From positions 1 to 54,539 of IMG/VR virus record IMGVR_UViG_3300027851_000034: a stretch of DNA of 54,539 nucleotides. One strand, given 5' to 3'. The notes below the pieces were generated by a model. It had not been told where the DNA came from. It did not search any database and saw only the letters and a list, made by a program, of their open reading frames with translations. Both the position numbers and the translations under genes were made by a program. Below are positions 7,040 to 37,906 of the stretch, one piece after another (positions within the stretch are counted from its first letter, which is position 1; each line of letters opens with the position of its first letter). The DNA comes from a virus. Taxonomy: Duplodnaviria > Caudoviricetes.

Positions 7040-7309
7040 TCACGCCTTCGCCAAAACGTAGTAAGCCAACGGGTCTGACACCAATTCGCTGGCATCTCCC
7101 GGCGGGCCAGGAGGCCCCTGGGTGGCCACGTCCAGAACCACCAGCACCTCTGTGGCGTCGATCAACTCAGTGGTCAGCGCTGTTTCGACCATGGTCTCCG
7201 GCGTCGCCACCTCAATGACCTCCAGCCGCTCGACCTCATCAACCGCGGTCTCCACGACCACCGCCTCCAGGACTTCCGTTGCCGCGCTGTCGTCAACCAC
7301 AACACTCAT
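7040..7309 (-). CDS. Acidic virion protein with short collagen-like GPPGPPG
   Basis: Val/Glu-rich; coupled to the upstream gene. Confidence 0.7.
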   Translation of the reverse strand: MSVVVDDSAATEVLEAVVVETAVDEVERLEVIEVATPETMVETALTTELIDATEVLVVLDVATQGPPGPPGDASELVSDPLAYYVLAKA

Positions 7310-7665
7310 CGCGTCACCCCCGGCGACACGGAAACGGTGCCCTGCAGCAACCGGCGAACCGTGCCATTGGCAAACGTGATCTCCAGGTCGTAAACAGCGC
7401 TGGCCCAGTCAATCGCCGACGTCTGCTCATCGGTCAGAACCATCTCAACCGTGCCCAGCGCACCGCCGAGCACAACCCCGCCGTTCTCGGTGGTCAGTTC
7501 CAGCAGCGGAGCGCCGGGAGAGTTGACCTTCAGGCGGACATGCATCCGCGCCGTGCACCCCGTCAGATCGACGGGCGTTCCTGGCGCAGGGCCAAGCTTC
7601 CACGTCACCGGCTTTCGGAACGTGGCTCCCTGGTCTATCTTGAGATTGAGCTTGAAGGCGGCCAT
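7306..7665 (-). CDS. Tail-fibre adaptor (BppU/LtfC-like Ig fold)
   Basis: IDQGATF...VDLTGCTARMHVR...AVYDLEI...LLQGTVSVSPGVTR pattern. Confidence 0.75.
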   Translation of the reverse strand: MAAFKLNLKIDQGATFRKPVTWKLGPAPGTPVDLTGCTARMHVRLKVNSPGAPLLELTTENGGVVLGGALGTVEMVLTDEQTSAIDWASAVYDLEITFANGTVRRLLQGTVSVSPGVTR

Positions 7666-7769: not shown

Positions 7770-7883
7770 TTGAGAGCCATAATCCGTGACTGGGGTGGAA
7801 TGCAATTTCCAGATGGCCACCAGTCGCCGACTTTTGCAAATGGATTAAAAATCCGAATAAATAATTTCCAAGAGGGATATTTG

Positions 7884-8615
7884 ATGAATTCCGCAACACA
7901 GGAAATAAACTCAGGCCCAGCACTTCTTTATTTCACATATATTGCAGTAGCGATTATTGCATCAACAAAATTTACCAAGTACATTTTAAAACCAAAACTA
8001 ACAGCATACAGATTATTTATAGGCTGGCTTTCTTCTACATTCCTCATTTCGGCAATTGTTGTACCTTTGTATTTTATTGTGTACAACTCAAAAAATGCAG
8101 GGGTCTGGATGATCGGAGGAGATATGGCAATAACAGGAGAATCACTTAAGGGGGTGGCATTATCCTGCGCGTTGACTTTTTGGATTACAGCATATTTAAT
8201 TTCGCGCAAGGAAAACCCAACAATTGAACGCGTCTTGAGGTGGATATTTTTGATTTATGTCACAATAATTGTGATTACATTCACCGTGTTCGGTGCTGAT
8301 TTTTTCGAAAGCATGCAAAGTAAAAAGCCGGTTTCAACACCGATCCCTGCTGCAGCCCAAGTGCCAAAGTCAATAGCTTCACCGGTAGTCCCAGCACCAG
8401 CACCACCGCAGGATACGGCTGAGGTCGTTGACGATAGGGCCGCAAGAGAACACTTCGCAAGAATTTACGCCGCACACCCCGATGCTGACAACATCATGAA
8501 TAGCTCCGTTTTTAATGCATGGGCGAGTCAATCAGCCGAACGCCGACGAATATTGGAAAAGGGAACGACCATCGAAGTGATTGACCTATTCAACACATAC
8601 AAGGCGCAACGGTAG
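7884..8615 (+). CDS. Low-GC moron: 4-TM membrane protein, Pro-rich linker, and domain similar to the phage scaffold protein
   Basis: Four hydrophobic helices. C-terminal HFARIYAAHPDAD...AW...GTTIEVIDLFNTYKA aligns with scaffold HWRAIYQAHPDAE...AW...GTSAQVIELLDAFKA. RBS AGAGGG before ATG 7884; alternative start at 7800. Confidence 0.8.
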   Translation: MNSATQEINSGPALLYFTYIAVAIIASTKFTKYILKPKLTAYRLFIGWLSSTFLISAIVVPLYFIVYNSKNAGVWMIGGDMAITGESLKGVALSCALTFWITAYLISRKENPTIERVLRWIFLIYVTIIVITFTVFGADFFESMQSKKPVSTPIPAAAQVPKSIASPVVPAPAPPQDTAEVVDDRAAREHFARIYAAHPDADNIMNSSVFNAWASQSAERRRILEKGTTIEVIDLFNTYKAQR

Positions 8616-8666
8616 TATCAAGCATCAGTCCACCAGCGGAATCATGTTGTATTTTGAGGGTCATCC

Positions 8667-8810
8667 ATGTTCTGGGTCACACTGTTTTTTCTGGCATTTC
8701 TCTTGATAGTTGTGTGCAGTGGAGCATCAATTAAATCCATATTCACAGTGGTTACCATCATTGGCGCTGTCTCGACTGTTATTGGATTTGCGCTGAATTT
8801 TTTGCTGTAG
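8667..8810 (+). CDS. Unannotated 47-aa two-TM protein
   Basis: MFWVTLFFLAFLLIVVCSGASIKSIFTVVTIIGAVSTVIGFALNFLL; RBS GAGGG; below the ORF-track size cutoff. Confidence 0.6.
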   Translation: MFWVTLFFLAFLLIVVCSGASIKSIFTVVTIIGAVSTVIGFALNFLL

Positions 8811-11800
8811 CAAACATCGTGTTCATGTTGCTCATGATTTCGGTGATGCGTTGCTCAACGGCATTTACCTGGGCGGCATCGGCATCTGACTTGAGCATTT
8901 CGCTTTTCTCTCGTCGCAATTGCTGCACGCGCCGCTCTGCCATGTTGAATCCAATGATCAGCCTGGCCTCTGGGTTCTCCATGCGCAATTCCCTGGCCTC
9001 GGCGAACTTCCCATCCTTCTCAAGCCCCCTGATCTCCGTCTCAAGGCGGTTCAGCTTGCTGGCATTTGAATAGAAGGCATTGCCTTGGCCAGACTGGCCA
9101 TCGGCGCTGCCCACAAACCGGCCAACCAGCGGCACCTTGTGCAGCGGCAAATCTTCGCCAGTGATGGTATTGGTGATGGTTTGCTCCACCTTTGTGAGTT
9201 CGCGCCACACGCCACCACCAAGCTGACCGGCGAGATAGTCAATCTGGTCAGGCGTTGGGCTCAACACACCGGCCACATACTTGTTGCCACCAGATAACGT
9301 GTTGATGGCTTCAGCCAAGAACTTCGACACAATGGAGGCGGAATCTTTGTGCTGGGTGAAGCCGGGTAAGTCTTTATTGGACGACACCCGCGCAATAGGC
9401 CTACCGGTCCAGTCCTTGTTTTCTGTCAATGCCACAAGCGGATCAAGAACTGTCGGAGCAATGGTTTGCATGGACAGTCCAGCGTTGCCAATTGGGTTGA
9501 ACGCATCGGCAAACAACCCGGCCAACTCTGCGGCTCTCTGCACCGGGTTTTTGAATCCACCAAGCGCAAACTCAGTCGCCACGCGCCCAACGCTGGGTAT
9601 TACGTGCAGGCCAAGCGGCATGGGGATGGTGATGTACGACTTGCCTCCTGTGGGGATGATCAGGTTGCGCTCACGCACAAACTCTGGCGGCTCATCGTCA
9701 TCAAATCCGGCAGCAGCCAAAGCCAATGCCTGAACAGACCCCAGCAGCACCCCGCCGTACACCACCTTTTTGCCATACGGCGTCAGTCGCAGCGTCTTGG
9801 GCTGGCCAGGCTCCATGGTCATCAGGGTTTCAGCCAAACGAGCTGTGCCCTGCATGGCTGCATTGAAGAAGGCGTACACGGCACCGGCCTGTGCGCCTGA
9901 AATACCTTTTCGGTTGAAGTTGACGGTCAGATTCTTCGCCAAACTGGCCGCCTTCTGGCGCGTCATGCCTTTGTCCAGCGCTGCCTTGTATGCCGCCAGG
10001 CGCACGCCGTTTTCCATGGCCTCGTTGTAGTCGCTCAACCAATCAAACAGGCCGCTTGAGCCCTTACGGATGAGGCTGATTGGACGGGTCAATCGCCCTT
10101 CGGCAGTGAAGAACTTCCCCAATTTCGACTTTGCCCACGCGTCAGGGTTCATCAGTTCATTGAAGGCGTCCGTGCGATCGGCCGGCGTTGCGAACAAATC
10201 CCGAAAGCCGGTCTGCCCACCATCTTGCTGAAACTGCTCGTACAGCTTGGACCACTCAGAAGAAGACGCCCCGCCCTTGCGCACGGAGCGAATGTCCTTG
10301 TAAATCCCTGACAGCGCACGGATGGCGTCTTTGGCGATCCGGTTTTTCTGGTCGGCCAACTCGGTGGCACCCAAGTTGATCATGGCACCCTGCACATCTC
10401 GCACCAGGTTCACCACGCCAAAAACGGGGTTGTATTGGGTGTTGATGGATGCAAAGTATCGAGTCATCTGCGACACCGTGCCCAGCCATCCCTCAATCTG
10501 AGGCGTGTCCAGGTTTTTCAGGGCGCCAGCCATGCGAACGGCTCGCTCGTTGTCCTGGTTGAACGTCACGGCAACCTCGCGCACCACGCCATCCTTTGCC
10601 ACCTTGGCCATCACCACATTGGGCAAGCTCTTGAACAGCGGGTTCACGCGCTCCTCAACGACGCCAGTCTTGGGGTTGAACACCCGCTCGGAATCTGGTG
10701 GGCCGACCTTCCAGAAGTCTTGATTTGGGTTGGCTGTCACCAGCCCCACCAAGGCCTTGGCCACACGGTTTTTCTCTCCGCGCACCACAGCCTTTTCCCG
10801 GGCAGATGCAATGTGACTGATGATGTCCACCACCTTGCGGGTGGAGCCTGTTCGGCCCTTGGTCTCTCGGCCTTTGATGGAGAAGCCCTGTCCCGTGCCA
10901 CGCCCACCGGCCTTGTCCTCTCGATGCAGTGGCACGTAGTGCTTGAACATCTTGCCCCAGGAGTCGATGGCGCTCTGAGGCTCCAGCTCATACTCCACCA
11001 TCAGGCGATTGGTCTCAGCCATGATCGCGTCGAACTTCGCCGCCACCGCCGCCAGCCTAACCGCATCGGCCCTGGGCAGATTGGAAAAGTAGGCATCTGC
11101 CTCGGCATCCTTCATGCCAGAGCCGCCATCCTGCAAACCCTCAACATCAGGATTGCGCTCGGCAATCACCCGATTTGCCTCCTTCGCATGCCGGGCGTGC
11201 ATGTACTCCTCAAGGTCTGCAAGCTGAAACCCATGGAGCGCCAATTGCCTCAAGGCCGGCTCAAGTTCTTTCCTTGTGAAATCCTGAACGCGCTTGGCTG
11301 TGCGACCGTGATACAGCTCCTCTTGCAGGTAAACGTTGATGTCATCAGCCAACTTTCCAGACCACTTGGTGATGCTTTGGGTGACTCGCTTCAAGTCCAC
11401 CAGTTTGTCTTGCAGATTGAAAACGTAGTCATCCCACTTCGATGGCAGCGGCGCATCCCACCGGTCAGCCGCAGCCCCCTTCACACCGAAGTCGTCGGGG
11501 TCTGGTGTGCGGCGGAAACGAATGTCCGGGTTCGCCGGATCGAAATCACCATTGTTGCCAATGGCGCTTTTCACCTGCGTGGGCTCGAAGGCTACGATTT
11601 CAATCGACCCATCGGGGTGTGTCAGCATCACGCCATCGTGTCCTTGCGCCTTGACCTTTTCCGTGAACTGGTCAATGTGGGACTGCGGTGCCCTGGACAG
11701 CTTGCGCTTCATGTCCAGCGTGGCCGGGTATGGGTTGACCACCGCAAAGTACAGCGGCATCGCGTTCTGGCTGCCATCTCCGCGCTTGGCAGAAGCGTAG

Positions 11801-14800
11801 AGACTGGCTATGTCCGGGTCGCTGGTGCCGTAGATGCCCCAACCGAGCCAGCCGGTATCTTTTCGGTTGGGATGTCCAACATCAAATTGGCTGATGTCGT
11901 CTCGTGTGCCATGGAAAAAGACAACCGGGCGGCCTTGCGCATCAACGGGTCCGGATCGTTCACGTCCCACGGCGGCAGAGGCAGGCTGTCCAGCATCTCC
12001 TCCAGAGTCATTTCTTGCGGCGGCTTTTGCATCACGGCCACTGTACCAGCGCTTGAACGCCTCGCCCTGTGTTTGGTCTTTGCTCCGGCTCAGCCTCACA
12101 CCACCAGGCCCACCATTCGGGCCACCGCTCACCACGAAATTGCGTGCTGGCAGCAGGTACTGGCTGATGATCTCGTCATCCGTCAGGGCCATTTTCCCGA
12201 AGCCAGGAATATGGGTTCTCAACCACGCCCTGATGGCCGCAATCGCCCGCCTCACAAACCCAATTTGCGGGTTGGTCTCTGCCATCTCCGCCAGCACTTC
12301 CTCGGCCGCCTGCAGGCGCTGGCCAGGATCCTCAAAATCCAACCCATACTGCTCCGCCTTCGCACGAACATCCGCTTTGCGAAACACGGCAATCTGGTTC
12401 AGGATGTCAGACAACCCCTTGCCAAAGGTGCCCCTCAAGCCGTAATGCCCCAGGGCCTCATGGAAAAGCACGCGCACCACATCACGGGGTTCGCTCAGCG
12501 CACCAGCCACGATGTAGGCTTTGCCCTTGTACCAAAAGCCCTCGGGCTCACCCTCGGCACCCTGGCTGCGCTGCTGTGCGTCATATTCGCGCACAACCGC
12601 CGGGGCTTTTTCATCCTGCATGTCCGCAAGCACCACCACCTCGGGAGCGTTGGCCCAGCGGGCGGTGATGCCGTCAACGACCTTTTGAGCGAGGTCAGCA
12701 GTCAGGCCGCTTGAGGCCCCCTGGCTGCGGCTATTGCGTGGCGATACGCTCGCATCTCCAGCATTGCCTGTTTGGTTTCCTGCCGCAAGGACTCTATCTC
12801 TGACAAGCTGAGCATCGTCATGTTTGGCAAGGTAGCGCGCCTCTGACTCGGTGAGCGCATCAAACCCGTAGCCGGTAACGGCTCGGAATTGCGGCTCGAT
12901 GTCATCAAATCGTTCACGGACTTTGCTCAGAAGTTCTGGTGATGGGGATAGAACTGAACTGTACTGCTTCCCGGTCAGGGCAACAAGCCCAGACACCATG
13001 CCGCCGTTGTCGCGGATATGGCTTGCCAGCGATGCAAATGTGCCACCTTGCGTTACGGTGTCATCCACAAGCACATACGCTGCGCCCTTGCGCACAAGCC
13101 CATCAAACACAGGTGGGTTCAGCAGCCTATCAAGCCCATCCATGGAGGTGCGCTTGGGAGAGTTGACCTGCACAATTTCTGCCTCGGCCTCAGTGCCCAG
13201 CCTTTCTGCCAACAGGTCGGCAACGGCAGCTGGGATTTTGTTTCGGCCGGTTGCCTCCACCGACACCACCGGGACGATCACATCAGCACCACTGGCTGCG
13301 TCACGCACTCGCTGCACAAAAGCGTCATCCACCAAGTCAAATGCAATGCGCGCAGCTGCAAAGCTGTCGCCTGCCTTTGCTGCTTCGTAATCCGGGTGCC
13401 GGTTCAGGTCACCAAGCTTGTGCCCAATTACCACGTCAGGCAGGCGGTTTCCGCTGTTGCTGCGTCGGCTGAACATCGGCACGCTGGCCGCCACACCATC
13501 GGGCTTTTTGTCACTGCGCAGCATCAGGTGCGACCCGCCGCGCGGCTTATCGCCCGAGCGGGCAATCATCTCATTCACAAAATCGTCCAAGGCCGTGTTG
13601 TTCAGGCCATGAATCCAGTTGGCCAGCCGAGCCATGCCAAGGAACCTTGCAATCTGTTCAAGCAAGTTGCCGACTGAACGGGTCCAGGCGCGCAGCTGGA
13701 AAGGAGAGCCAGCGCGCAAGGTTTCGCTCATCGTGGCCAGCGACTCCTCAACAGCCACAGCCTCATAATTGGCCAAGCGTTCACCCGTCATCGGCCCTAT
13801 TGCCGAATAACTGGCCAGCTTCTCCTGCCCATCGGCAGATTTTTTCCAAGCCTCCGCCCCCCTTCGAACCACGGCGTGATCGGTTGCCAGACCCAACATG
13901 AACTTGACGTAATCCGCATTCGTGGCGAAATACGACTTCAACCCCCGGTGAAACAACTCATGGAAAACCGTCCTCATCACGTCCAAAGTGCCAGTGTTGG
14001 CACCGGAAAAGACAACGATCCTCCCGTCTTTGAGTACCCCACCCTTTGGCATCGGCCCAGGGATACTCAGCCCAGCATCGGATGGCGTGCGGTGCACCTC
14101 AATGTGAGGCGCGTTTGGAATGTCCTTCAAGACAGACTGCACGGCTTTAAAAGCCGCATCGTGCGTCAATGGACGGCCAAATAAGCCCGGCAATGTCGCC
14201 CTGCGGTACAGCATCTCGCCAGCCTTATCGCCGAGCCCGTACACCCTCTGCCGCCTCGACATGGCACCGGAGCTTTTGAGCGCCTGCGCCACATCACCCC
14301 GGGTGCTTCCTTTTGGCACGGTCACCGGGTCGCCGGTCTCAAAGTTCAGGGCCTCATATTTCCCGACGTACACCACACCGTCTTTGACTGTGACGGCTTG
14401 CGCGTTGCCCGGCGTGGAGCCCACCATCATCTGATCTGGCTTTGTGACTGAATTCGGGGCGCCGACCGGCTTGGCAGCGTCGGATTGCGCCCCCCCAGGG
14501 GGTTGTGAGTCAGACCCAACCACGGCCCCCGTCTGCCCGGCTTGTTCCTGACTTACGCCATTTGCAGGGCCGCCAGCAGCGCCAGAAGATGCATCCACCG
14601 TTGCGCTCGGGAACTCCTTCACCAGCGGCAGCAGCTCGGCAGCCGGGGCATCCAATCGAATGGCTTTGACAGGCTCCCCAGTCTCAAGCTTGGCCACGGC
14701 TTGATGATGGCCGTCAATGATGTGACCATCGCTTGAGATCAGAATCGACCTGTCGCCTCCAGCCTCCTTCGCACGCTCCACCTTCTCGGGAGAAAACTCC

Positions 14801-17181
14801 GCCTGCGTCGGCTTGAGCGTGGCAGGGTCAACCTCAACCGCCTCATGTCCAACACCCCGTGCATTGAGGAAATTGGTCATTGCCCCCCGATGCGCCGTTT
14901 TGATCTGAGGCATCTCAGAGCGTGGGACATCCAGTGTTCCGGTATCGGCCCCAAACGCCTCCCAAGAGGTGGCCCCCACATCGGCGCGCTCCGACTCCAG
15001 CGCTGCAGCCACCTTCTGGCGCACGGCATCCGGCACCTTGGCCCACTGCTTCTCAGCCATGCGAAGGGCAAAAATCCCCTTCAGGCCAGCGTCTGTCATC
15101 AGTTTTTCGCGCTCGCTCAGGGTCTTGGTCTGCCACACCTGTTCGGCAGCCTTGCTTGGCGACTGGGGGGAGGTCGCCACACCCTGACCGGCATCACCGG
15201 CTGCGCTGCTTTGCCCAGCCATCGCTCTCGCCTTGAACCTTGCAAGGTTCGTCTGCCGCTGGTCGGGAATGGTCATCGCATCCCCGGCATTGGCCTGGGA
15301 GCCCTCGGCTACGCCTGCTGAGGGTTGCGCTTGCGGTCGTTGCGTTTGCGCTTGCTGGGCTTGATCGCCATTGAGTGCTCCTTGGGTGGGTTGTGGAACT
15401 TGTTGCGCCAGGCGTGCGGCTTGCTCTCGCTGCGAGCGGATCCGTGCCAGCCCCTCGCGCAGATTTGTGGGGGCAGGAAGGGAGAGCGGCTGTCCCGTGG
15501 CCATCACCTCCCTGGCCTCCACGTCGATGACGGGCGACTCACCCAGGCGTCGAGGCGTGCCAATTTGCCCGGCCGCCGCCCCAATGGGCTGAACATCCAC
15601 CGGTTCTGCGGTGCGGCGCTGCAAACCCAAACCAGAAACCGCAGCAGGGGATGCGCCAGAATCCACCGCCACCACGGCGGAAGCCGACAGCGGGCCCGCC
15701 GACGGGTTCAAGCCCATGGCAACAGATGGCCGCTGAGCGGGAGGCTCTACAAACCCCGCATCGCCAGGCATCACAAAGTTCTGGCCAAACGGCTTGGCCG
15801 GTTTCTCTGGTGATGCCTTCATATCCGGCGCAATGTCCATGCCGGGTGGGATGTACCCGACAGGCTTTTGCTCTGGTGTCGGCTCTTGGTACGGCACATC
15901 GCCTGAAGGCTCTTGCCTCAACTCAAGCGGCACAGTCGGTTCAACGCCTGCGCGGGGGTCGTAAGTGCGCTGCAGTCCACCGGTTTGCTGTTGAGCAATC
16001 AGGTCTGCATCTGTTGCAATGGACGGGGTATCGGTTGGCGTGGCGGTGTCGCCTTGCGGAACAAGCGAAAGACCGCTTTCTGTTGGCGTGATGGGTGGCG
16101 CTGCATCAGCCTGCGGGCCAGTCATCCGCTGATACAGCTTTTGACCTGCGAACGTCAACCCACTTTGCCCAAGCGAAGAGGTGGCCTCTAAGAACGCATC
16201 CTTGGCATCAGCCTCGCCAGTGGCGGCGTACGATCCTGCGTATTCACCCGCGAACTCACCTACTGGCTCAGCCAACCCGGCAGCGGCATTCCTCGCCACT
16301 TTCTGCGCGCCGGTTTGCGATGCTTGGTAGGCTGCGTCATTGGCGATGATGCTCTTGAATGCAGGCGACTTCGACGCAGCAGATACCGCCGCTTTGTCAG
16401 CAACGTCCACGCCAAGTTCAGTCAGGGCCTTGTTCGCAGCAGCCTTACCAGGGCCAGACAGCAGCGCATGCGAAAGGCCCATGGTGGCGGTATCCACCGC
16501 ACCAATCACCGCCCCCTTGACGGCAGTTTCACCCAGGATTGAATCCCCATTCTTGTCAAGGTATGCCTTCACAGCCGCCGTGTCAGTCGGGTTGATGCCC
16601 GCTTTCTCCAGCTGCCTGAATGCCGCCTCAGACGTGCCAACCATGGAGTTACCGGCAGCCGCACCAGCAAACCCACCCACGGCAGTACCAACGGGGCCAG
16701 CAGCCGAACCAGCAGCGCCACCGACCAACATGCCAGCCATCGGCAAAATCATGTTGGGCACTTGCTCAACGATGCCCGACCCCAATGCTTGCAGGTTGCG
16801 GCCCACAGACATCGCACCAGCGCCAAATCCTTTGGCATTGTTGTAGTCGTTGGCAACCTCACCGGCTACACCCTTGATGCCACCTATGATGCCGTCACCT
16901 TCGCGCCAAGCCTTCATCAAGCCTTGGCCTTCTTCGCTACCAGGGTTTGCCTTCTGATACTCGGCCTGCGCACGGATTCGCTCGGATGCCGCCACCGTAT
17001 CTCGGCCAGCCAGATCAGCGGTCAGCCCAACGCTTGACTTGACGCTTTTCCAGCCACGGGCCAGCGGGCCATCTGTATCGGCTGGCTTTATGGGCTGACC
17101 ATCAGCCTGATGAAATTTTGAGAACGGGTTCTCACCGCCTGCATCAGTGTGAAACTTAGCAAATTGATTTCTCTGGTCCAT
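8779..17181 (-). CDS. Giant (2800 aa) polyvalent protein, probably virion-ejected: ParB-like, two zincin-like peptidase, PRTase, ADP-ribosyltransferase and LPD38 domains
   Basis: LKPTQ...IIDGHHQ; HELFH and HEALGH; YVLVDDTVTQGGT; FFHGT...GIY...EIVAFEPTQVKSA; C-terminal ENKDWTGRPI...SPTPDQIDYL. Start MDQRNQF at 17181. Confidence 0.85.
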   Translation of the reverse strand: MDQRNQFAKFHTDAGGENPFSKFHQADGQPIKPADTDGPLARGWKSVKSSVGLTADLAGRDTVAASERIRAQAEYQKANPGSEEGQGLMKAWREGDGIIGGIKGVAGEVANDYNNAKGFGAGAMSVGRNLQALGSGIVEQVPNMILPMAGMLVGGAAGSAAGPVGTAVGGFAGAAAGNSMVGTSEAAFRQLEKAGINPTDTAAVKAYLDKNGDSILGETAVKGAVIGAVDTATMGLSHALLSGPGKAAANKALTELGVDVADKAAVSAASKSPAFKSIIANDAAYQASQTGAQKVARNAAAGLAEPVGEFAGEYAGSYAATGEADAKDAFLEATSSLGQSGLTFAGQKLYQRMTGPQADAAPPITPTESGLSLVPQGDTATPTDTPSIATDADLIAQQQTGGLQRTYDPRAGVEPTVPLELRQEPSGDVPYQEPTPEQKPVGYIPPGMDIAPDMKASPEKPAKPFGQNFVMPGDAGFVEPPAQRPSVAMGLNPSAGPLSASAVVAVDSGASPAAVSGLGLQRRTAEPVDVQPIGAAAGQIGTPRRLGESPVIDVEAREVMATGQPLSLPAPTNLREGLARIRSQREQAARLAQQVPQPTQGALNGDQAQQAQTQRPQAQPSAGVAEGSQANAGDAMTIPDQRQTNLARFKARAMAGQSSAAGDAGQGVATSPQSPSKAAEQVWQTKTLSEREKLMTDAGLKGIFALRMAEKQWAKVPDAVRQKVAAALESERADVGATSWEAFGADTGTLDVPRSEMPQIKTAHRGAMTNFLNARGVGHEAVEVDPATLKPTQAEFSPEKVERAKEAGGDRSILISSDGHIIDGHHQAVAKLETGEPVKAIRLDAPAAELLPLVKEFPSATVDASSGAAGGPANGVSQEQAGQTGAVVGSDSQPPGGAQSDAAKPVGAPNSVTKPDQMMVGSTPGNAQAVTVKDGVVYVGKYEALNFETGDPVTVPKGSTRGDVAQALKSSGAMSRRQRVYGLGDKAGEMLYRRATLPGLFGRPLTHDAAFKAVQSVLKDIPNAPHIEVHRTPSDAGLSIPGPMPKGGVLKDGRIVVFSGANTGTLDVMRTVFHELFHRGLKSYFATNADYVKFMLGLATDHAVVRRGAEAWKKSADGQEKLASYSAIGPMTGERLANYEAVAVEESLATMSETLRAGSPFQLRAWTRSVGNLLEQIARFLGMARLANWIHGLNNTALDDFVNEMIARSGDKPRGGSHLMLRSDKKPDGVAASVPMFSRRSNSGNRLPDVVIGHKLGDLNRHPDYEAAKAGDSFAAARIAFDLVDDAFVQRVRDAASGADVIVPVVSVEATGRNKIPAAVADLLAERLGTEAEAEIVQVNSPKRTSMDGLDRLLNPPVFDGLVRKGAAYVLVDDTVTQGGTFASLASHIRDNGGMVSGLVALTGKQYSSVLSPSPELLSKVRERFDDIEPQFRAVTGYGFDALTESEARYLAKHDDAQLVRDRVLAAGNQTGNAGDASVSPRNSRSQGASSGLTADLAQKVVDGITARWANAPEVVVLADMQDEKAPAVVREYDAQQRSQGAEGEPEGFWYKGKAYIVAGALSEPRDVVRVLFHEALGHYGLRGTFGKGLSDILNQIAVFRKADVRAKAEQYGLDFEDPGQRLQAAEEVLAEMAETNPQIGFVRRAIAAIRAWLRTHIPGFGKMALTDDEIISQYLLPARNFVVSGGPNGGPGGVRLSRSKDQTQGEAFKRWYSGRDAKAAARNDSGGDAGQPASAAVGRERSGPVDAQGRPVVFFHGTRDDISQFDVGHPNRKDTGWLGWGIYGTSDPDIASLYASAKRGDGSQNAMPLYFAVVNPYPATLDMKRKLSRAPQSHIDQFTEKVKAQGHDGVMLTHPDGSIEIVAFEPTQVKSAIGNNGDFDPANPDIRFRRTPDPDDFGVKGAAADRWDAPLPSKWDDYVFNLQDKLVDLKRVTQSITKWSGKLADDINVYLQEELYHGRTAKRVQDFTRKELEPALRQLALHGFQLADLEEYMHARHAKEANRVIAERNPDVEGLQDGGSGMKDAEADAYFSNLPRADAVRLAAVAAKFDAIMAETNRLMVEYELEPQSAIDSWGKMFKHYVPLHREDKAGGRGTGQGFSIKGRETKGRTGSTRKVVDIISHIASAREKAVVRGEKNRVAKALVGLVTANPNQDFWKVGPPDSERVFNPKTGVVEERVNPLFKSLPNVVMAKVAKDGVVREVAVTFNQDNERAVRMAGALKNLDTPQIEGWLGTVSQMTRYFASINTQYNPVFGVVNLVRDVQGAMINLGATELADQKNRIAKDAIRALSGIYKDIRSVRKGGASSSEWSKLYEQFQQDGGQTGFRDLFATPADRTDAFNELMNPDAWAKSKLGKFFTAEGRLTRPISLIRKGSSGLFDWLSDYNEAMENGVRLAAYKAALDKGMTRQKAASLAKNLTVNFNRKGISGAQAGAVYAFFNAAMQGTARLAETLMTMEPGQPKTLRLTPYGKKVVYGGVLLGSVQALALAAAGFDDDEPPEFVRERNLIIPTGGKSYITIPMPLGLHVIPSVGRVATEFALGGFKNPVQRAAELAGLFADAFNPIGNAGLSMQTIAPTVLDPLVALTENKDWTGRPIARVSSNKDLPGFTQHKDSASIVSKFLAEAINTLSGGNKYVAGVLSPTPDQIDYLAGQLGGGVWRELTKVEQTITNTITGEDLPLHKVPLVGRFVGSADGQSGQGNAFYSNASKLNRLETEIRGLEKDGKFAEARELRMENPEARLIIGFNMAERRVQQLRREKSEMLKSDADAAQVNAVEQRITEIMSNMNTMFATAKNSAQIQ

Positions 17182-17185
17182 CCCC

Positions 17186-17229
17186 CAACTTTGCCGATGG
17201 GGGTGGCTGGCGTCGAACCCCACAGGGGG
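17186..17229 (-). promoter_or_regulatory. Late-promoter motif copy 3 (polyvalent protein)
   Basis: CCCCCTGTGGGGTTC-N19-GGCAAAGTTG, just upstream of ATG 17181. Confidence 0.7.
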
Positions 17230-17234
17230 AGCGC

Positions 17235-17270
17235 AAAAAGGCAAAACCCGCCAGGAATTCCGAGCGGGCT
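17235..17270 (-). terminator. Probable intrinsic terminator of the antirepressor operon
   Basis: CCCGC/GCGGG stem with T-rich tail on the minus strand. Confidence 0.5.
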
Positions 17271-17881: not shown

Positions 17882-18622
17882 TCATTGAAGCAACCCGCCA
17901 CCCATCGCTTGAGCCAATTTGGTCAAGCCTTTGGGGGTGATGCGCGGCTGTGTGGCCGTCCACTCTGTGCCATCACCCTTCTCTCCAACCGTCACCTTGT
18001 GCTCCATGAGCCCCTGCTGAATGCGTTCTTGGTACGCAAGCCATCCAGCACCCATGGGGCGGCGGTAAATCCACCCCTTCTCCTGCAAAAGCTGAGTGAA
18101 CTTTCGAGGCTGAATTTGCAGCGTCTTCGCCGCATCGGTCAGGCACAGCGAGCCGTCCGACGTTGCAATGCGCTCCAGCGCCTCAACTTTTGGCGCTTGT
18201 GTGGCCACAACGGTTTCAAGTTTTTGCACCTGGGCCACCGCTTGCAAGCGCCCCTCCTCCGAGTCAATGGCCATTTTCAGAATGTCGATGCGCGACAGGC
18301 TGGATGGGTCAAAGCTGGTGGCCTTGGCTTCAAGCTCCTGCCACCGGTCAACTATGCGGGCAGTGAACTCAGGGGAGAGTTGGGCGACAACTATCAGGCT
18401 ACTGCGTTTGTCGAGTTTGTAGACGCCGACAGTTTCCTCACGGCGTTCTCGCTGAATTTTGACTTCCTCAATTTGAGGAAGTGAGATTGCACCACGCTCG
18501 GCGCAGCTTTCAATGGTGCGCTTCACGTTGTCATGGCGCTTTTCGGTCAGCTCGGCGATTTCCCGGCTTGTCATGGTCACACTATCGGATAAACCGGAAA
18601 TGTTGGCGATGTTGGTATTCAT
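17882..18622 (-). CDS. Antirepressor: Rha-like N-terminus plus KilAC/ANT C-terminus
   Basis: TMTSREIAELTEKRHDNVKRTIE; LCLTDAAKTL...QPRITPKGLTKLA. Confidence 0.9.
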   Translation of the reverse strand: MNTNIANISGLSDSVTMTSREIAELTEKRHDNVKRTIESCAERGAISLPQIEEVKIQRERREETVGVYKLDKRSSLIVVAQLSPEFTARIVDRWQELEAKATSFDPSSLSRIDILKMAIDSEEGRLQAVAQVQKLETVVATQAPKVEALERIATSDGSLCLTDAAKTLQIQPRKFTQLLQEKGWIYRRPMGAGWLAYQERIQQGLMEHKVTVGEKGDGTEWTATQPRITPKGLTKLAQAMGGGLLQ

Positions 18623-18780
18623 TTCTGCGTTCCTTTCTGCTCTTGACGGTTGCGGCTCTCTTCAAGCCGGAAAACAACTTCGGCGGTCAGGCTGCGTCGA
18701 GCCTTTTCCGCCTGCTCTTGCAGCCACACCTTCAACCCCACAGGGAGCCGAAGGTTGGTCTGCGCTTCGCTGGGTGCCAT
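18619..18780 (-). CDS. Arc-family ribbon-helix-helix repressor
   Basis: QTNLRLPVGLK...RRSLTAEVVFRLE; RBS AAGGAG. Confidence 0.85.
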   Translation of the reverse strand: MAPSEAQTNLRLPVGLKVWLQEQAEKARRSLTAEVVFRLEESRNRQEQKGTQK

Positions 18781-18792
18781 AACTTCTCCTTC

Positions 18793-18856
18793 ATGTAGCA
18801 CTTTGCTTGGTTTGAATGTAGCACTTTGCTTGGACAAGCGCAAGCAGTTTGCTTGG
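18793..18856. promoter_or_regulatory. Operator repeats between divergent Arc genes (cassette 2)
   Basis: ATGTAGCACTTTGCTTGG at 18793 and 18816; AGCAGTTTGCTTGG at 18843. Confidence 0.7.
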
Positions 18857-18867
18857 ATAATTCGCGC

Positions 18868-19245
18868 ATGGCCTCCGAGGACGTTCAAACAAACCTGCGT
18901 CTGCCTGCTGATCTCAAAGATCGGCTGGTAGCTTCTGCATCAAATTCCAAGCGCTCATTGAGCGCGGAGGTGTCTGCACGACTTGAGGGGAGCTTTCACG
19001 AAAGCGGGCTGAAGTTGAGCAATCCTGCGCGCCAGGCCGTGCAAAAACTGGTAGACCGCGCCGGGATAACCGACCAGGAAGCTCTGGAGCGGCTTGTTTT
19101 GCAGGGGCACGCCACCCTGGAGAACAGAAACGTCCTTGTAATTCGCGCCGACGCCAGCCTCTCAATGGATGACTTGATCCGAGTCTTGAGCGCAGCAAAG
19201 AACTTCCTGCCTGACATCTCCGATGTCCATCTCGAAAGAGACTGA
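18868..19245 (+). CDS. Arc/Mnt-family repressor with C-terminal extension
   Basis: QTNLRLPADLKDRL...KRSLSAEVSARLE; GATAAT 6 nt before the ATG (leaderless-like). Confidence 0.85.
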   Translation: MASEDVQTNLRLPADLKDRLVASASNSKRSLSAEVSARLEGSFHESGLKLSNPARQAVQKLVDRAGITDQEALERLVLQGHATLENRNVLVIRADASLSMDDLIRVLSAAKNFLPDISDVHLERD

Positions 19246-19520
19246 TCTTCAAACCGTTCTGCGGCTGGCAGGTTGCTGTTGACGATGAGCCGGAACATGT
19301 CGGCTTCGGTCAGGACGCGGGCCTCCTGCGTGCGGCCAAGGCTGTCAACGATGGGGTAGCGTTTCGCTACCCCACGGCAATGCTGCTTGATGGCGTCGTT
19401 GTGGTTGGCGTAGCCCAGCGCCTCACACAGGTCTTTGCCCACGAACAGGGGTTCTCCGTTGTCGCCGGTCACGACGCGAAGGGTGGTGCTCTCGAAATTG
19501 AATGGGACGATTTGTGTCAT
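19246..19520 (-). pseudogene. Truncated BRO-N antirepressor
   Basis: GEPLFVGKDLCEALGY...SNLPAAERFE; family-like sequence stops where the second Arc cassette begins. Confidence 0.7.
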
Positions 19521-19708
19521 GCCTGGGCCCCTTGGGGTTGGTTGCTGAACTTCTCACCCTGCTCGATCAAAAACAGGATGTGTTTGTTGAGGCTGCGTTT
19601 GGCGCAAGCGGCCTGTGATTTAAGTTCGGCGCGGTGGTTGCTGCGCTCGAAGCGGAGGATGTATTTGTCAGCTTGCTTTTGGGTGGGTGGTTCAGATTCA
19701 ATGTTCAT
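19517..19708 (-). CDS. Arc-like repressor
   Basis: DKYILRF...AKRSLNKHILFLIE; ATGA coupling to BRO-N. Confidence 0.75.
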   Translation of the reverse strand: MNIESEPPTQKQADKYILRFERSNHRAELKSQAACAKRSLNKHILFLIEQGEKFSNQPQGAQA

Positions 19709-19723
19709 GGTTGCTTCCAAAAA

Positions 19724-19822
19724 ATGGCGACTAGCCATGTGATGAATTGCGGCGAATCGCCGCATTTATGCAATAGCAAAGATGGCGAATCGCCATTAAT
19801 TTTAACTATGGCGATTCGCTAG
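19724..19822. promoter_or_regulatory. Four palindromic operators GGCGA(A/C/T)T(C/A)GC(C/T) between divergent Arc genes (cassette 1)
   Basis: Copies at 19724, 19748, 19782 and 19808. Confidence 0.75.
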
Positions 19823-19833
19823 TAAGATAGGCT

Positions 19834-20349
19834 ATGACTACCGCCCGCCAATTCCCCTCTGATGAGGCTGACAAGTTCGTCGTGCGACTTCCAGACGGCA
19901 TGCGTGACCGCCTCAAGGCTTCAGCAAAGAGCAACAACCGCACGTTGAATGCCGAAATCGTCTCCAGGCTTCAAGCCAGCTTCGATGGCCCATCAGTGGT
20001 GAGCAAACACACGCGCACGGCGGCCACGCCGGATGACATGGAGTTGCTCTATGCAATCACGAAGGCTCACATGGAGCTTCAGCAATCCACGATGGCACTC
20101 GGGGATGCAAGGGAGGAGGCGTTTCGGCTGTCTTCTGTTCTGGAGCGCCGCGAGAGGGATCTGAGAGACTCCAAAGAGTTGGGGCGAGGCGAGGCCTTTG
20201 TTTCAGTTCACCAAGACGCCTACAACAAGGCACTGAAAGAGTTCAACAAGGCGCAGCAGGCTGTCAAGAATGCAACAGCGGATGTGAGGGCCAAGCAGTC
20301 CGACCTATCAAACCTCTACCAGCTGCGCGAAGCCAAGAACCGGGGATAG
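19834..20349 (+). CDS. Arc/Mnt-family repressor with coiled-coil C-terminus
   Basis: DKFVVRLPDGMRDRLK...NNRTLNAEIVSRL. Confidence 0.88.
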   Translation: MTTARQFPSDEADKFVVRLPDGMRDRLKASAKSNNRTLNAEIVSRLQASFDGPSVVSKHTRTAATPDDMELLYAITKAHMELQQSTMALGDAREEAFRLSSVLERRERDLRDSKELGRGEAFVSVHQDAYNKALKEFNKAQQAVKNATADVRAKQSDLSNLYQLREAKNRG

Positions 20350-21448: not shown

Positions 21449-21538
21449 TTTGTTTGGGTGTTGTTATGTATGAGTTTGGCTGTTATTTGGTATTGGATCA
21501 GTCATTGAAAAATTGTTCAACCTCTGAGCCAAACAAAG

Positions 21539-21606
21539 ATATCCACAGAATGCCTAAGAATTTTGTGTGCAACTTGTTGATAAGTATGTTCATAAGCTGG
21601 GAATAA
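21539..21606. promoter_or_regulatory. Array of DnaA-box-like 9-mers
   Basis: ATATCCACA (21539), then opposite-strand TGTGTGCAA, TGTTGATAA, TGTTCATAA, TGGGAATAA at 11-12-bp pitch. Confidence 0.45.
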
Positions 21607-21741
21607 CAAGACGCATCACCCATTTCTTCCATTTGTGAAGAACTGAATAACTCACAAAAACCGTTTGTCGGCGCGATTGGGGTGGAAACAACATCCAGCA
21701 GAAAACCGCCTCAGTGGGCGGCTCACAGCCTGGAGCGCCCA

Positions 21742-21787
21742 TCCCCCATTTGGTGGATGGCATGGAGGACTGTTTTGTGGCCGAATC
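21742..21787 (+). repeat. 46-bp element, copy B
   Basis: Same two blocks and 12-nt spacer as 7724-7769. Confidence 0.8.
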
Positions 21788-21812
21788 CCTCAAATCACAC
21801 ATGGGGGATGGC

Positions 21813-22118: not shown

Positions 22119-22475
22119 ATGAGCCGAACCCTTGCCGTCCGCCTGGTATTCGCCCTCTCGTGCTCCCCGGCCATGGCAGGCAACTTCGCAACTTGCTTGC
22201 TTGACAACCTGCCGGGCACACAAAACGCTGCGGTGCACGCAGCAGCGGTGTCAATGTGCGTCCAGCAAAACCCAAATAGGTTCTACGACATTCAGAAGGG
22301 CTCCGGAAGAGGCTTTTTTGGCTATTCAAGCGGCACCGAGTGCACCATCGACAAAGGCAAGAACACCACGTGGGCGGACTCGGCCATCTTGATTGGCGTT
22401 GCCTGTGAGTGCCTTTACACCAAAGGTGCCAAAGGTAACTTCTGCGAAAACCCATTCAAACGATTTCACGAATAA
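22119..22475 (+). CDS. Secreted Cys-rich protein (resembles VF_A0006-type four-cysteine proteins)
   Basis: Signal peptide ending AMA; ATCLLD...C...C...ACECLY. Confidence 0.65.
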   Translation: MSRTLAVRLVFALSCSPAMAGNFATCLLDNLPGTQNAAVHAAAVSMCVQQNPNRFYDIQKGSGRGFFGYSSGTECTIDKGKNTTWADSAILIGVACECLYTKGAKGNFCENPFKRFHE

Positions 22476-22484
22476 ACGCAGCCG

Positions 22485-24230
22485 TCAGCCTTTCGTGAGG
22501 TATTTGGCTGATGCTCCAACCCCGTAATACTGGTCAAAATCCGCAGCCAAACTCGGATCAGATTTCAACACGCTGATACTGCCGCTTGTTGGAACCCTCG
22601 GTGCCCCACCATCCACCTGCTGCACATCACCTGTGGCCTTGTTGTACTTGTAGATGCTCCCCATGGAGGTAGAGCCATCCAAATTCTTGGTGGTGGGCGT
22701 GACTTGAACCGCCCAATCAGCCGGTGCGGGCTTGCCGGACAGCTCCCGCAGCGTCTGTGAAAGGCGCGCCTTCTCATTGGGGTCGTTGGATGCCAGGTAA
22801 CGAGACTGAATATCCAGCAACTGCTTGGCAGACAAGATGCCAAAGCTTTTCTCTTCGCGGCCCACCGCCCCGTTGGCCAGCTCATTGGCCGCCCGTTGGC
22901 GCGCCATCTCCAAGTGCTGACGATCCATGCCAAACTTGGCTTGGGAGTCCTGCCGTGCCGCTGCAAACATCTCCCGGTTGAGGCCTAGGCCTGCCCTGGT
23001 GTTGCTTTGGGTTGCTGCCAAGCGCTGCGCATCTGTCATGGCCCGGGTGCGTGCCTCGTAATCCTGGGTCGATTCGCCCATCTTCTGCCGCATGTCCATC
23101 AGGTTGGTGCGGGCCTGGCTATCCGCCTGCAGGCGTGCGTCAATGCCTTGGGCCACTTGCAGTCCTGCGGCGGTGCTGGCCTGGGCCTGTGCGGCCTCGG
23201 CTGCAAACTGCTGCTGCGCACGCTGGGCGGCACGCTCACTGGCTCCGCGCTCCAGCATTGCATTCATGGCTGCCAGGTTCTGCGCCGTGGGCGCACCGCG
23301 CCCCATCAATGCTTGGTTGTCTTCCATGCCAGCGGCATCGGTCTTGTTGGTAAACAAGGGGCTCTGTCCGGGCGCATCGAAGCGCCGAATGCCAAAGCCC
23401 ACATCGCGGCCTTGGCCCAGATCTACCGGTGCGGCATTGGTGGGCGTCGCACCGGCTGCCCGGATGGGGCTTACCGCCGTGCTGGCCCGCGTGGGGTAGT
23501 TGTGCCCCTCGTTGGAGTAAGAGGCTTGCGCGGGTGTTGGCTTGGTGGTTGGTGTGCTTTCGACCGTCACCCCCCTCAGTCCATCGACAAAGCCACCGAC
23601 CCCATGGGCAACAGAGTTTGCGGGTTTGGCAACCGTGTCCGCGATGGCGGCAGGAAACAGGGCAAGCCCACCACGGATGCCCAGGCCGGCAGCGCGCCCA
23701 TATTCGCCCTTGGCTGCGGCGGCGCTCACATCCTCTCCGGTTCCTCTCCACACCGCGCCCACGCTGGGCGATGTCCTGTCCAGCACGTCTGCCGTGGTAA
23801 GTGGCTTGCTGGCTGCAGGCGCTGCGGGCGACCCGAGCGCCTGGGCGATGGCTGGCTTGGATTCTGGGGCCTGCGTGGGGTAGTTGTTGCCCCCGTTGGA
23901 GTAAGAGGCTTGCGCGGGTGGCGTGGCGGCGGGTGCCCCCATCCCGCTGGCGGGCCTGGATGCCGTGGGACCGAAACCAAACCCTCGGGATGGTGGAGCC
24001 TCAGCCGTGGTGGGCCTGGATGCGGGCGGGTTGAGGCCAAACCCTCGGGATGGCGGCGCATCAGTCGTGGCGGGCCTGGATGCCGTGGGACCGAAACCAA
24101 ACCCTCGGGAGGGCGGCGTTGGTGTGGCCGCTGACTGGGCACCCGGTGCACCTCGCCCGTAAATGGACTGGGTTGGGGGGTTGTGGGGGAAAGCCGTTGG
24201 TGGCTTTTTCTTTTCGCCGATGAATTCCAT
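22485..24230 (-). CDS. Probable ejection/pilot protein with low-complexity repeats
   Basis: Pro/Ala-rich N-terminus, Ala/Gln-rich helical middle; position between tail genes and the polyvalent protein. Confidence 0.65.
   Translation of the reverse strand: MEFIGEKKKPPTAFPHNPPTQSIYGRGAPGAQSAATPTPPSRGFGFGPTASRPATTDAPPSRGFGLNPPASRPTTAEAPPSRGFGFGPTASRPASGMGAPAATPPAQASYSNGGNNYPTQAPESKPAIAQALGSPAAPAASKPLTTADVLDRTSPSVGAVWRGTGEDVSAAAAKGEYGRAAGLGIRGGLALFPAAIADTVAKPANSVAHGVGGFVDGLRGVTVESTPTTKPTPAQASYSNEGHNYPTRASTAVSPIRAAGATPTNAAPVDLGQGRDVGFGIRRFDAPGQSPLFTNKTDAAGMEDNQALMGRGAPTAQNLAAMNAMLERGASERAAQRAQQQFAAEAAQAQASTAAGLQVAQGIDARLQADSQARTNLMDMRQKMGESTQDYEARTRAMTDAQRLAATQSNTRAGLGLNREMFAAARQDSQAKFGMDRQHLEMARQRAANELANGAVGREEKSFGILSAKQLLDIQSRYLASNDPNEKARLSQTLRELSGKPAPADWAVQVTPTTKNLDGSTSMGSIYKYNKATGDVQQVDGGAPRVPTSGSISVLKSDPSLAADFDQYYGVGASAKYLTKG
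23950..24110 (-). repeat. 60-bp coding tandem repeat, about 3 copies (PPSRGFGxxPxASRP)
   Basis: Visible in DNA and protein; PAQASYSNxGxNYPT also occurs twice. Confidence 0.85.
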
Positions 24231-36744: not shown

Positions 36745-37749
36745 CTACAAGAGCCGAGCCATCAGCGCCTCGATCTGCTCAGGGGTTTTGCCTTCCAGCT
36801 TCCCCATCAGGTCTGTCGCCGACATTTGCCGGATCGCTTCCAGCTCATCTGCCGGGCCCGCTGCACTGCCGGGGATCTCCGACAAGCTGGCCGGGCCTTG
36901 CGTCTGGGCCTTTTCGATCACCGCTTTCGCGGTTTCCGCTGCGTTGTGTGCGGCGGGCGGCGTTTGTTGAGTTCTTCCGTTTGCAGCCTTGAACGCATCA
37001 AGCAGCTCGATAACCTGCGCGGACGTGCCCTGCTTGAGCACCACCTCAAAGCCCTGGCGCAAAAAACTCGGGTGTGTGTCAATCCACGCCTTCAGTTCTG
37101 CGCTTTCCGCGAGCGATTCCGCGTCAGGGTGTGCCTGATAGATCGCTCGCCAGTGCTTCTCGGCCTCGGTGATTTCGGCTGTCGCCTGCAGCGGTTTGAC
37201 GGCCTGCTCCAGCTTTGCCTCAAGCGCAGCCATGCGGGCCTCAACCAGCTTTTCAGCCAGTGCCTGCACACCCTTTGCAATGGCGGCTTCACTGAAGTCA
37301 CCAAAAAGCCCAGGGTCTGCACCGGCATCAATCGCGGCCGTGGCCTGGGCCACTGCTGTGTCTGACGCCGTTGGCTTTTGTCCTGCCGCTGCGCGCTGGT
37401 CTGCCTGGGCCTGAAGCGCTGCCAGCTGCTGCTGGGCTGCTTCTGCCTGGGCCTTCCAGTGCTTCTCACCGTCACGTGCCTCTACCAGCTTCTCGTATGG
37501 GATGGTGTGAACACCGTCCTTTGCGAGCACCACCTGGGTGGTGGCTGGCTTGGATTGGTCATCGGTCGTTGTCTTTGCGTCCGCGCTCGGTGCTTTGTCG
37601 GCTTCAGCAGGTGCGGGGTCGGGCTTCCCGCTGTCCACCAGCAAGGTGGTATCGCCCTCGGGCAGAGAAAGAAGCTCTGCCATCTGCGCATCCGTCAAAT
37701 CGCCTGAAGCGGCATGCTCTCGAAAAAACTCAGCTTGAGTCGTTGCCAT
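36745..37749 (-). CDS. Capsid scaffolding protein
   Basis: Between portal and capsid; IPYEKLVEAR; acidic and coiled-coil. Start MATTQ at 37749. Confidence 0.8.
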   Translation of the reverse strand: MATTQAEFFREHAASGDLTDAQMAELLSLPEGDTTLLVDSGKPDPAPAEADKAPSADAKTTTDDQSKPATTQVVLAKDGVHTIPYEKLVEARDGEKHWKAQAEAAQQQLAALQAQADQRAAAGQKPTASDTAVAQATAAIDAGADPGLFGDFSEAAIAKGVQALAEKLVEARMAALEAKLEQAVKPLQATAEITEAEKHWRAIYQAHPDAESLAESAELKAWIDTHPSFLRQGFEVVLKQGTSAQVIELLDAFKAANGRTQQTPPAAHNAAETAKAVIEKAQTQGPASLSEIPGSAAGPADELEAIRQMSATDLMGKLEGKTPEQIEALMARLL

Positions 37750-37906
37750 GCGTCCCTGCCACTTGTCGGAGTGGCCCCAAAGGTCGCGCATTCGACTGGC
37801 CGCGCAGGGGCCTAAGCCCCCACGCTGGTCAATCTCCAGCTACGGGAAGGTGCTACGTCATCACGACGTTGCGGTTCGCCGCCAAGTTGCCCTGGCGACT
37901 TGCTAC

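Follow-up and report, generated by a model that had tools for sequence, protein, structure and literature searches.

A membrane-anchored moron protein of an F116-type temperate podophage with a domain homologous to part of the phage's scaffold-position protein

The viral record IMGVR_UViG_3300027851_000034 (54.5 kb, estimated to be 87% complete; its whole length of 54,539 nucleotides is hereinafter referred to as the window) was found to carry a moron gene (7884 to 8615, plus strand) encoding a protein of 243 amino acids (aa) plus stop, in which a membrane anchor and a linker precede a C-terminal domain. On sequence comparison, this domain is homologous to residues 208 to 269 of the protein encoded directly upstream of the major capsid gene of the same phage (hereafter the scaffold-position protein). 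Independently of any function, the analysis defines an unannotated domain family, without relatives in Pfam, NCBIfam, or the PDB, whose members are found in a cytoplasmic assembly protein as well as in exported proteins. The exported class, consisting of a signal peptide or transmembrane (TM) anchor, a linker, and a 57-aa domain, is undescribed so far, and this branch is recurrent in F116-type prophages. The best explanation of the moron is that it is a horizontally acquired gene of a temperate F116-type podophage. As to its role, we tentatively propose, as a possibility that we favor without regarding it as probable, that the protein is produced by the prophage, resides in the inner membrane, and tethers its domain in the periplasm, where it would interfere with DNA entry of related phages.

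Homology of the moron domain to the scaffold-position protein

The scaffold-position protein (P0002; 348 aa; 36745 to 37791, minus strand) was assigned to phrog_479, which is listed with function unknown, and contains a 62-aa, scaffold-class copy of the domain (36985 to 37170, minus strand). It was 44 to 48% identical to F116-group proteins encoded just before the major head gene, and public records of these homologues carry the annotation "hypothetical." BLASTP of the moron protein (P0001) against the scaffold-position protein returned 26 identities over 73 positions, with 58% positives and 8 gap positions (E 2e-10), and a search of the record itself with the moron protein gave a match at 36985 to 37221 (E 1.3e-8). 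A first-pass annotation of the window had counted about 20 identities in about 55 positions at 36983 to 37165; this interval is close to that of the 62-aa copy, and the homology it postulated is real.

Both proteins matched the same part of phrog_479, the moron protein over residues 183 to 220 only (E 1.1e-4) and the scaffold-position protein over residues 55 to 347 (E 1.2e-56). The moron protein has in common with this family the five-helix domain and the pattern H..IY.AHPD..W..G..K. In contrast, it lacks the acidic N-terminus and the five-residue insert, and it failed to match the family at full length, including the coiled coil and the C-terminal tail. Nor is its gene next to the capsid gene: it lies 27 kb from the major capsid gene and on the other strand, whereas the scaffold gene is directly upstream and on the same strand. 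When 99 exported-class and 45 scaffold-class domain sequences were compared with hhalign, the two alignments matched significantly (probability 99.9%, E 1e-33), and a control with a reversed alignment gave a probability of 0.5%. The E value is not fully independent, because both sets were gathered with one hidden Markov model.

The first-pass annotation had described the moron domain as a mimic of the phage's own scaffold, and this part of its description did not hold. The moron domain was 34% identical to the scaffold copy of its own phage and 52 to 53% identical to the top exported-class copies. Its length is that of the 57-aa form, the five-residue insert typical of scaffold copies being absent. 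It thus looks like a member of the exported class by sequence and not like a recent copy of the resident scaffold gene. A domain phylogeny (166 rows, 67 columns) left the origin unsettled. In a quick free tree, the moron protein was placed near rows of the TM class; this tree had not converged, since two of the three constrained searches exceeded its likelihood. Approximately unbiased (AU) tests rejected neither a clade of the scaffold class plus the moron protein (p 0.255) nor a pairing of the moron protein with its own scaffold-position protein (p 0.735). Accordingly, our argument on origin draws only on how the identities rank and on the indel.

An AlphaFold model of the domain (123 aligned rows) showed five helices with a pLDDT of 90.4, and the Atlas model of residues 176 to 243 superposed on viral proteins of 309 to 355 aa with query TM-scores of 0.88 to 0.89. 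The residues H, I, Y, A, H, P, D, W, G, and K of the pattern given above were conserved in the exported and scaffold classes alike, and the moron domain is intact, with all family-conserved residues present. Conservation is strongest at positions that include two His and two Asp (H-x7-HPD-x-D), situated where helix 1 ends and in the loop after it; they could form a metal or ligand site.

No model in Pfam or NCBIfam covered the domain. In the PDB, Foldseek with the domain model found no match at E ≤ 0.001 (best E 6.0), phmmer with the scaffold-position protein found none, and the profile A3 gave nothing below E 0.028, with none of those matches lying on the domain. In the BFVD, the best match of the domain model had E 0.15, with query TM-scores of 0.64 to 0.78 to viral proteins of 246 to 370 aa, one of which is named "Capsid assembly protein." The full scaffold model (pLDDT 71, pTM 0.29) had two BFVD matches at E ≤ 0.001, both unnamed; a protein of phage Bjorn named "Scaffold protein" followed at E 7.7e-3, its TM-scores being low, which gives weak support to the scaffold label. 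Kinship with the J domain, considered for the common HPD tripeptide, was rejected: hhalign gave a probability of 5.7%, and no Pfam DnaJ match lay on the domain. For the TM part alone, the phmmer family search found no relative at E ≤ 1e-3. Its match to Pfam DUF6790 (E 0.014) fell below the threshold, and the alignment of the moron protein to P0004 (E 6e-19) was driven by the domain.

The exported class and the side of the membrane

An exhaustive phmmer search of 1.84 billion representatives (E ≤ 1e-3) yielded 122 proteins including the query, all of which matched through the C-terminal domain. The 121 relatives were sorted into classes by a crude Kyte-Doolittle-type hydropathy scan. At least two hydrophobic segments preceded the domain in 65 relatives and one segment in 15, so that 80 of 121 had hydrophobic segments before the domain; one further relative was a signal-peptide and six-Cys protein, 19 were scaffold-like, and 21, often short, had no hydrophobic segment. 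The length of the domain followed the classes: the 56- to 57-aa form was found in 53 of 70 proteins with at least two TM segments, and the 62-aa form, whose length is due to the five-residue insert, in 38 of 45 scaffold-class proteins.

The moron protein fits the exported class. The four TM helices, Pro-rich linker, and C-terminal domain noted in the first-pass annotation were recovered as four hydrophobic segments in its N-terminal part (residues 13 to 137; 7920 to 8294, plus strand), a Pro/Ala-rich low-complexity linker (residues 138 to 184; 8295 to 8435), and the exported-class domain (residues 185 to 241 of 243; 8436 to 8606). The segments, taken from our own Kyte-Doolittle scan and not from a trained predictor, lie at about residues 13 to 31, 43 to 65, 88 to 107, and 118 to 137. 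Lys and Arg numbered three in the loop after segment 1 and three in that after segment 3, as against none in the N-terminus and one in loop 2. This distribution favors, by the positive-inside rule, cytoplasmic loops 1 and 3 and both ends outside, in agreement with the earlier expectation of a periplasmic C-terminus, and the domain is likely located in the periplasm. The protein has no N-terminal signal peptide, and its only Cys lies inside hydrophobic segment 3.

The relatives bear on the same question. Six conserved Cys, after what appears to be a cleavable signal peptide, preceded the domain at 12 viral loci, and at 23 of 52 loci in a second scan. In two fusions (P0055 and P0032), a single hydrophobic segment lies between a J domain and the domain, which places the domain outside because the J domain must be cytoplasmic. 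Moreover, post-domain tails of at least 20 residues with exactly two Cys were found in 24 of 44 proteins with at least two TM segments, and post-domain Cys were absent from all 45 scaffold-class tails.

These features also bear on a different reading, in which the domain is cytoplasmic and pairs with the scaffold or its partner (capsid or portal), either tethering or sequestering the assembly intermediates of an infecting relative or sensing them so that the TM part leaks, as an abortive-infection-type defense. Scaffold proteins do work in the cytoplasm, two lysines come after segment 4, on the side predicted to face outward, and the crude scan found two hydrophobic segments in 5 of 14 J-domain fusions, an arrangement that would put the domain in the cytoplasm. 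However, the positive-inside count favors an outward C-terminus, the signal-peptide, Cys-rich relatives and the single-TM J-domain fusions place the 57-aa form outside, and Cys-pair tails occur only in non-scaffold classes; we regard the cytoplasmic arrangement as quite unlikely.

Many membrane-class proteins, e.g., P0003, P0007, P0024, P0026, P0028, P0048, and P0055, showed a recurrent two-Cys motif after the domain (C..[FIV][KR].[TV]M[TS]D.DY.ACG[IL].PP), which was present in no scaffold-class tail. A cluster annotated as "DnaJ domain-containing protein" of Pseudomonas aeruginosa was recorded on considerably more than 100 contigs, some of them whole chromosomes. When a DnaJ-RDD-domain protein of this species (P0028) was compared with phages and plasmids by tblastn, only partial matches, involving either the J domain or the scaffold domain, were obtained.

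Genomic setting and distribution

The window is a temperate podophage of the F116 type. It encodes a P22-type portal and a Phage_capsid_3 major capsid protein, and it is regarded as temperate because a gene for a CI-type repressor is present (49457 to 50158, plus strand). The moron lies in a low-GC island (about 7800 to 8900; 32 to 49% GC in most 100-nt bins) between a giant gene and the tail-fiber genes. As the first-pass annotation had stated, it adjoins the gene of a giant ejection-type protein (8779 to 17244, minus strand; 2821 aa, polyvalent, with LPD38 and ART-PolyVal domains), with which it is convergent. It was also correctly described there as a low-GC moron on the strand opposite to its neighbors, which are on the minus strand: the gene has a GC content of 43.3% as against 59.6% for the window. 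Within it, the TM part reaches 39.0% and the linker and domain 52.3%. A GAGGG ribosome-binding motif (7872 to 7876, plus strand), read from the sequence, precedes the ATG by 7 nt. Five relatives with the same end of the giant gene were available. In two of them (L058 and L062), high GC continues and no such insert is present; another (L059) has a different lower-GC stretch, and two (L060 and L061) have an integrase-like gene. The low GC, the opposite strand, the gene's own GAGGG motif, and the absence of the insert from L058 and L062 are the grounds on which we regard the gene as a moron.

Two further metagenome runs from other studies contained the gene, one as pieces 100% identical to the moron and one as a slightly diverged variant. 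The two listed differences of the variant (8067 and 8102) were both synonymous, with the frame read by hand and as a very small sample, so the gene is probably under selection as judged from these sequences. A word-indexed search found no second instance of the full-length moron, and this uniqueness could be taken to indicate a chance open reading frame (ORF) or a decaying remnant without function. We find that scarcely credible, as the domain is intact, the start context is good, the gene was present in three metagenome runs of three studies (one possibly the source of the record), and the architecture matches dozens of relatives.

The position within the late region, together with a domain in common with an assembly protein, could further suggest that the protein serves the phage's own lytic cycle, e.g., by anchoring assembly or release at the membrane, and has no function in the lysogen. 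Against this stand the opposite strand, by which late transcription would read the gene antisense, the foreign composition, and the absence of the gene from close relatives and from F116; such a lytic role appears highly improbable.

Domain copies were rare in genomes. In samples drawn around a Pseudomonas genome with a membrane-class copy (counts include this seed; one genome was not scored), the domain was found in 4 of 301 genomes of the seed's family and in 4 of 400 of its class. The six matches outside the seed comprised four scaffold-like prophage genes and two large exported proteins with a divergent copy. The latter (L071, 1 to 2007, and L072, 1 to 1992, both minus strand) are gammaproteobacterial exported proteins of more than 660 aa in which YPDW or YPGW replaces HPDAD. 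A chromosomal membrane-class copy in Pseudomonas sp. 30_B (L004, 5101 to 8219) stood beside genes for a HEPN/Toprim and RiboL-PSP-HEPN protein and a DUF4124 protein, and also next to an AcrB/HlyD efflux pair.

Two candidates of the genome scan (L009 and L010) were dropped from all counts; they had only the short pattern in common with the family and resemble unrelated oxidoreductases. Among viral contigs, a scan for the pattern gave 38 loci. Of these, 22 were scaffold-position genes that immediately precede a related capsid gene, 2 were scaffold-like genes of other phages, 12 were signal-peptide and six-Cys-domain genes, and 2 were TM-anchored genes. Among the 14 non-scaffold loci, 12 had an F116-type capsid gene at most 8 kb away (two as partial matches), and the 13th (L013) had scaffold and capsid genes 12 kb off in the same provirus; the 14th was a 5-kb fragment. 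Thus, 13 of 14 exported copies lay in F116-type elements that also encode the scaffold copy. Both copies also occurred together in a Delftia acidovorans prophage (L008), as they do in the window.

The exported copy was on the strand opposite to the structural genes in every case checked, and in all 13 loci examined its gene was convergent with a homologue of one 528-aa gene. At least four anchor types carry the domain: the signal peptide with the six-Cys module, the L012 type, the L013 type, and that of the window. In a related phage (L033, 6434 to 7138, minus strand), a Fic/DOC-family gene adjoined the exported-domain gene, which suggests a moron cluster at that site.

A candidate second gene of the island (8667 to 8810, plus strand; 47 aa, very hydrophobic, 41% GC) is preceded at 6 nt by a GAGGG and shares 32 nt with the 3' end of the giant gene. 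It had no match in searches of family libraries and may be the second gene of the moron. On the other side of the moron and divergent from it is a gene for a 119-aa protein of phrog_1084 with a weaker match to tail-fiber assembly (7306 to 7665, minus strand); in relatives of this gene, the upstream genes differ from those of the window. In the giant protein, ART-PolyVal represents the ADP-ribosyltransferase of polyvalent proteins, and two HExxH-like stretches and one phosphoribosyltransferase-like stretch were noticed by eye. According to PMC4819975, the giant protein of the F116 group is a homologue of T7 internal virion protein D (IVP-D).

Proposed role at DNA entry and the six-cysteine module

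The proposal of exclusion at DNA entry rests on three grounds: the sieA-like position of the gene, the layout of anchor, linker, and predicted outside domain, and the link to phages with the same assembly-protein domain. In outline, the moron would be transcribed on its own in the lysogen, and the protein would lie in the inner membrane with both ends periplasmic, its domain held on the periplasmic side by a flexible linker. There the domain would bind the partner that the scaffold copy binds during assembly, the most plausible candidate being a protein that is packaged in the capsid and passes through the periplasm when it is ejected on infection. Such binding might then disturb the DNA-entry conduit of superinfecting relatives, and in function the protein would be akin to P22 SieA or the Ltp lipoprotein. 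Recruitment of ejection proteins by scaffolds is established for P22, and the scaffold-position protein of the F116 group may act likewise.

The closest parallel in gene order is sieA of P22, whose product the first-pass annotation had cited as an inner-membrane exclusion protein acting at DNA entry. In the P22 record, sieA directly follows the last ejection gene, 16, on the opposite strand and with its own promoter, and precedes the tailspike gene; the moron is likewise convergent with the last ejection-type gene and lies before the tail-fiber genes. Both encode small multi-pass membrane proteins of temperate podophages with a P22-type portal. On the far side of the giant gene, the window has genes for an Ant anti-repressor (17882 to 18622, minus strand) and an Arc-like regulator (19834 to 20349, plus strand), and this region (17882 to 20349) is reminiscent of the P22 immI region beside sieA. 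SieA acts on ejection proteins at DNA entry, as stated in PMC10883804. It differs from the moron protein in having 162 to 164 aa, three predicted TM helices, and a conserved motif predicted to be cytoplasmic, and in lacking a tethered soluble domain and any relation to a scaffold.

Two other exclusion proteins were compared by description only. Ltp of Streptococcus phage TP-J34, which reportedly targets the incoming tape-measure protein, also has a layout in which an anchor in the membrane is followed by a flexible linker and by a small helical domain external to the cytoplasmic membrane. Ltp, however, has a lipid anchor, a Gram-positive host, and domains that are not derived from an assembly protein, whereas the moron protein has neither a lipoprotein signal peptide nor a lipobox Cys. 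Gp15 of HK97 is said to be a late-region moron product, a membrane protein that blocks DNA entry, and the window's moron is similarly located inside the late genes and encodes a membrane protein. In contrast, HK97 is a siphophage, and gp15 is not known to contain an assembly-protein domain. The Ltp family is named in PMC3952083. A PHROG search of the moron protein matched no exclusion family.

Several points weigh against exclusion at DNA entry, in addition to the two lysines and the two-segment J-domain fusions mentioned above. The label "scaffold" is itself inferred, from gene position, composition, and weak fold matches, and it is an assumption that the partner of the scaffold copy reaches the periplasm. 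The moron protein has no sequence similarity to SieA (BLASTP E 0.73), and F116 has no such moron after its giant genes. PADLOC 2.0 (E ≤ 0.01) assigned no family to the moron protein, the 47-aa ORF, a class-B protein, P0028, or the L004 and L012 proteins. The enrichment in F116-type elements could reflect simple descent by duplication within that lineage. Further, the Pfam partners among the 122 proteins are varied (DnaJ in 19, RDD in 8, RMF in 3, and GYF_2 in 2), the divergent-copy genes of L071 and L072 adjoin an AAA+ ATPase gene, and at least one genome (G001) has a chromosomal copy of the domain and no scaffold copy.

Some of these points also fit the main rival account, in which the domain is a general periplasmic self-association or envelope-binding module (binding, e.g., the cell wall) that was shuffled among exported proteins and also used in scaffolds. 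The moron product would then be a lysogenic-conversion membrane protein with its activity in the TM part or elsewhere, and its link to the scaffold would be one of ancestry only. Such an account agrees with the varied N-terminal partners, with the chromosomal copy in a genome without a scaffold copy, with the presence of the same fold in cytoplasmic and exported contexts, and with the optional occurrence of the domain in the six-Cys family described below. It agrees as well with the large exported proteins of L071 and L072, in which the stretch before the domain looks like a peptidoglycan-binding repeat. On the other hand, the domain is rare and was mostly found in scaffold-class prophage genes in the genome samples, exported copies are concentrated in elements whose scaffold has the same domain, and the polar H..HPD.D, conserved in both classes, is more like a binding site than a packing core. 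We consider a general module somewhat unlikely, while giving it appreciable weight. The first-pass annotation had named wide occurrence in housekeeping proteins as a finding that would speak against its reading; cellular fusions with DnaJ and RDD do exist, and the domain is nevertheless rare in genomes and not a housekeeping one.

If the tethered domain does block entry through an ejected protein, the moron product would be an exclusion protein built from the domain of a capsid-assembly protein of the phage itself, for which the portions of the literature reached by full-text search held no precedent. Exclusion at DNA entry would also provide a handle on the binding partner of the conserved globular domain of F116-type scaffold-position proteins and on the question of which ejected proteins of this little-studied podophage group pass through the periplasm. 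A broader extension is speculative and, in our judgment, improbable: the 57-aa domain would be a phage-derived periplasmic recognition module for an F116-type ejected protein, which prophages tether or secrete against rivals and which bacteria have connected, by way of TM segments, with modules in the cytoplasm (J domain, RMF/CrpP-like, HNH, and GYF), giving a large, so far unrecognized family of transmembrane proteins that sense or block the entry of phage DNA and are made from a part of the phage's own assembly machinery.

The six-Cys module was found in the window apart from the domain. An ORF of 118 aa (22119 to 22475, plus strand) has an apparent signal peptide and six Cys and lacks the domain. 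It ends just after the sixth Cys, and its identity to the module at the N-terminus of the fused relatives was 49% (E 1e-36). It occupies the syntenic site, convergent with a 581-aa gene (22485 to 24230, minus strand), the C-terminus of which matches the 528-aa gene found beside the exported-domain gene of relatives. Module and domain are therefore encoded by separate genes here, the domain being carried at a different moron site by the anchor of four segments. That some genomes fuse the two and others keep them apart is a weak hint that module and domain act in the same compartment. A scan for the module gave 52 viral loci; the domain was present at 23 and absent from 29 (seven of the 29 truncated), so that the domain appears as an optional add-on to this family.

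The 118-aa ORF scored 23.2 bits against NCBIfam NF041602 (VF_A0006-like four-cysteine proteins; cut-off 65), over profile positions 60 to 89 only, and the nearest Atlas clusters were VF_A0006-like four-cysteine proteins carrying PF28034 (score 0.93). A second dip in GC (46%; 21500 to 21800) lies between a 193-aa gene (phrog_1281) and this ORF, and several short ORFs in the dip had no family. The truncated six-Cys genes in other elements (L120 to L126) encode 49 to 84 aa, and several of them have in common a short, out-of-frame-looking tail, as if they were decaying.

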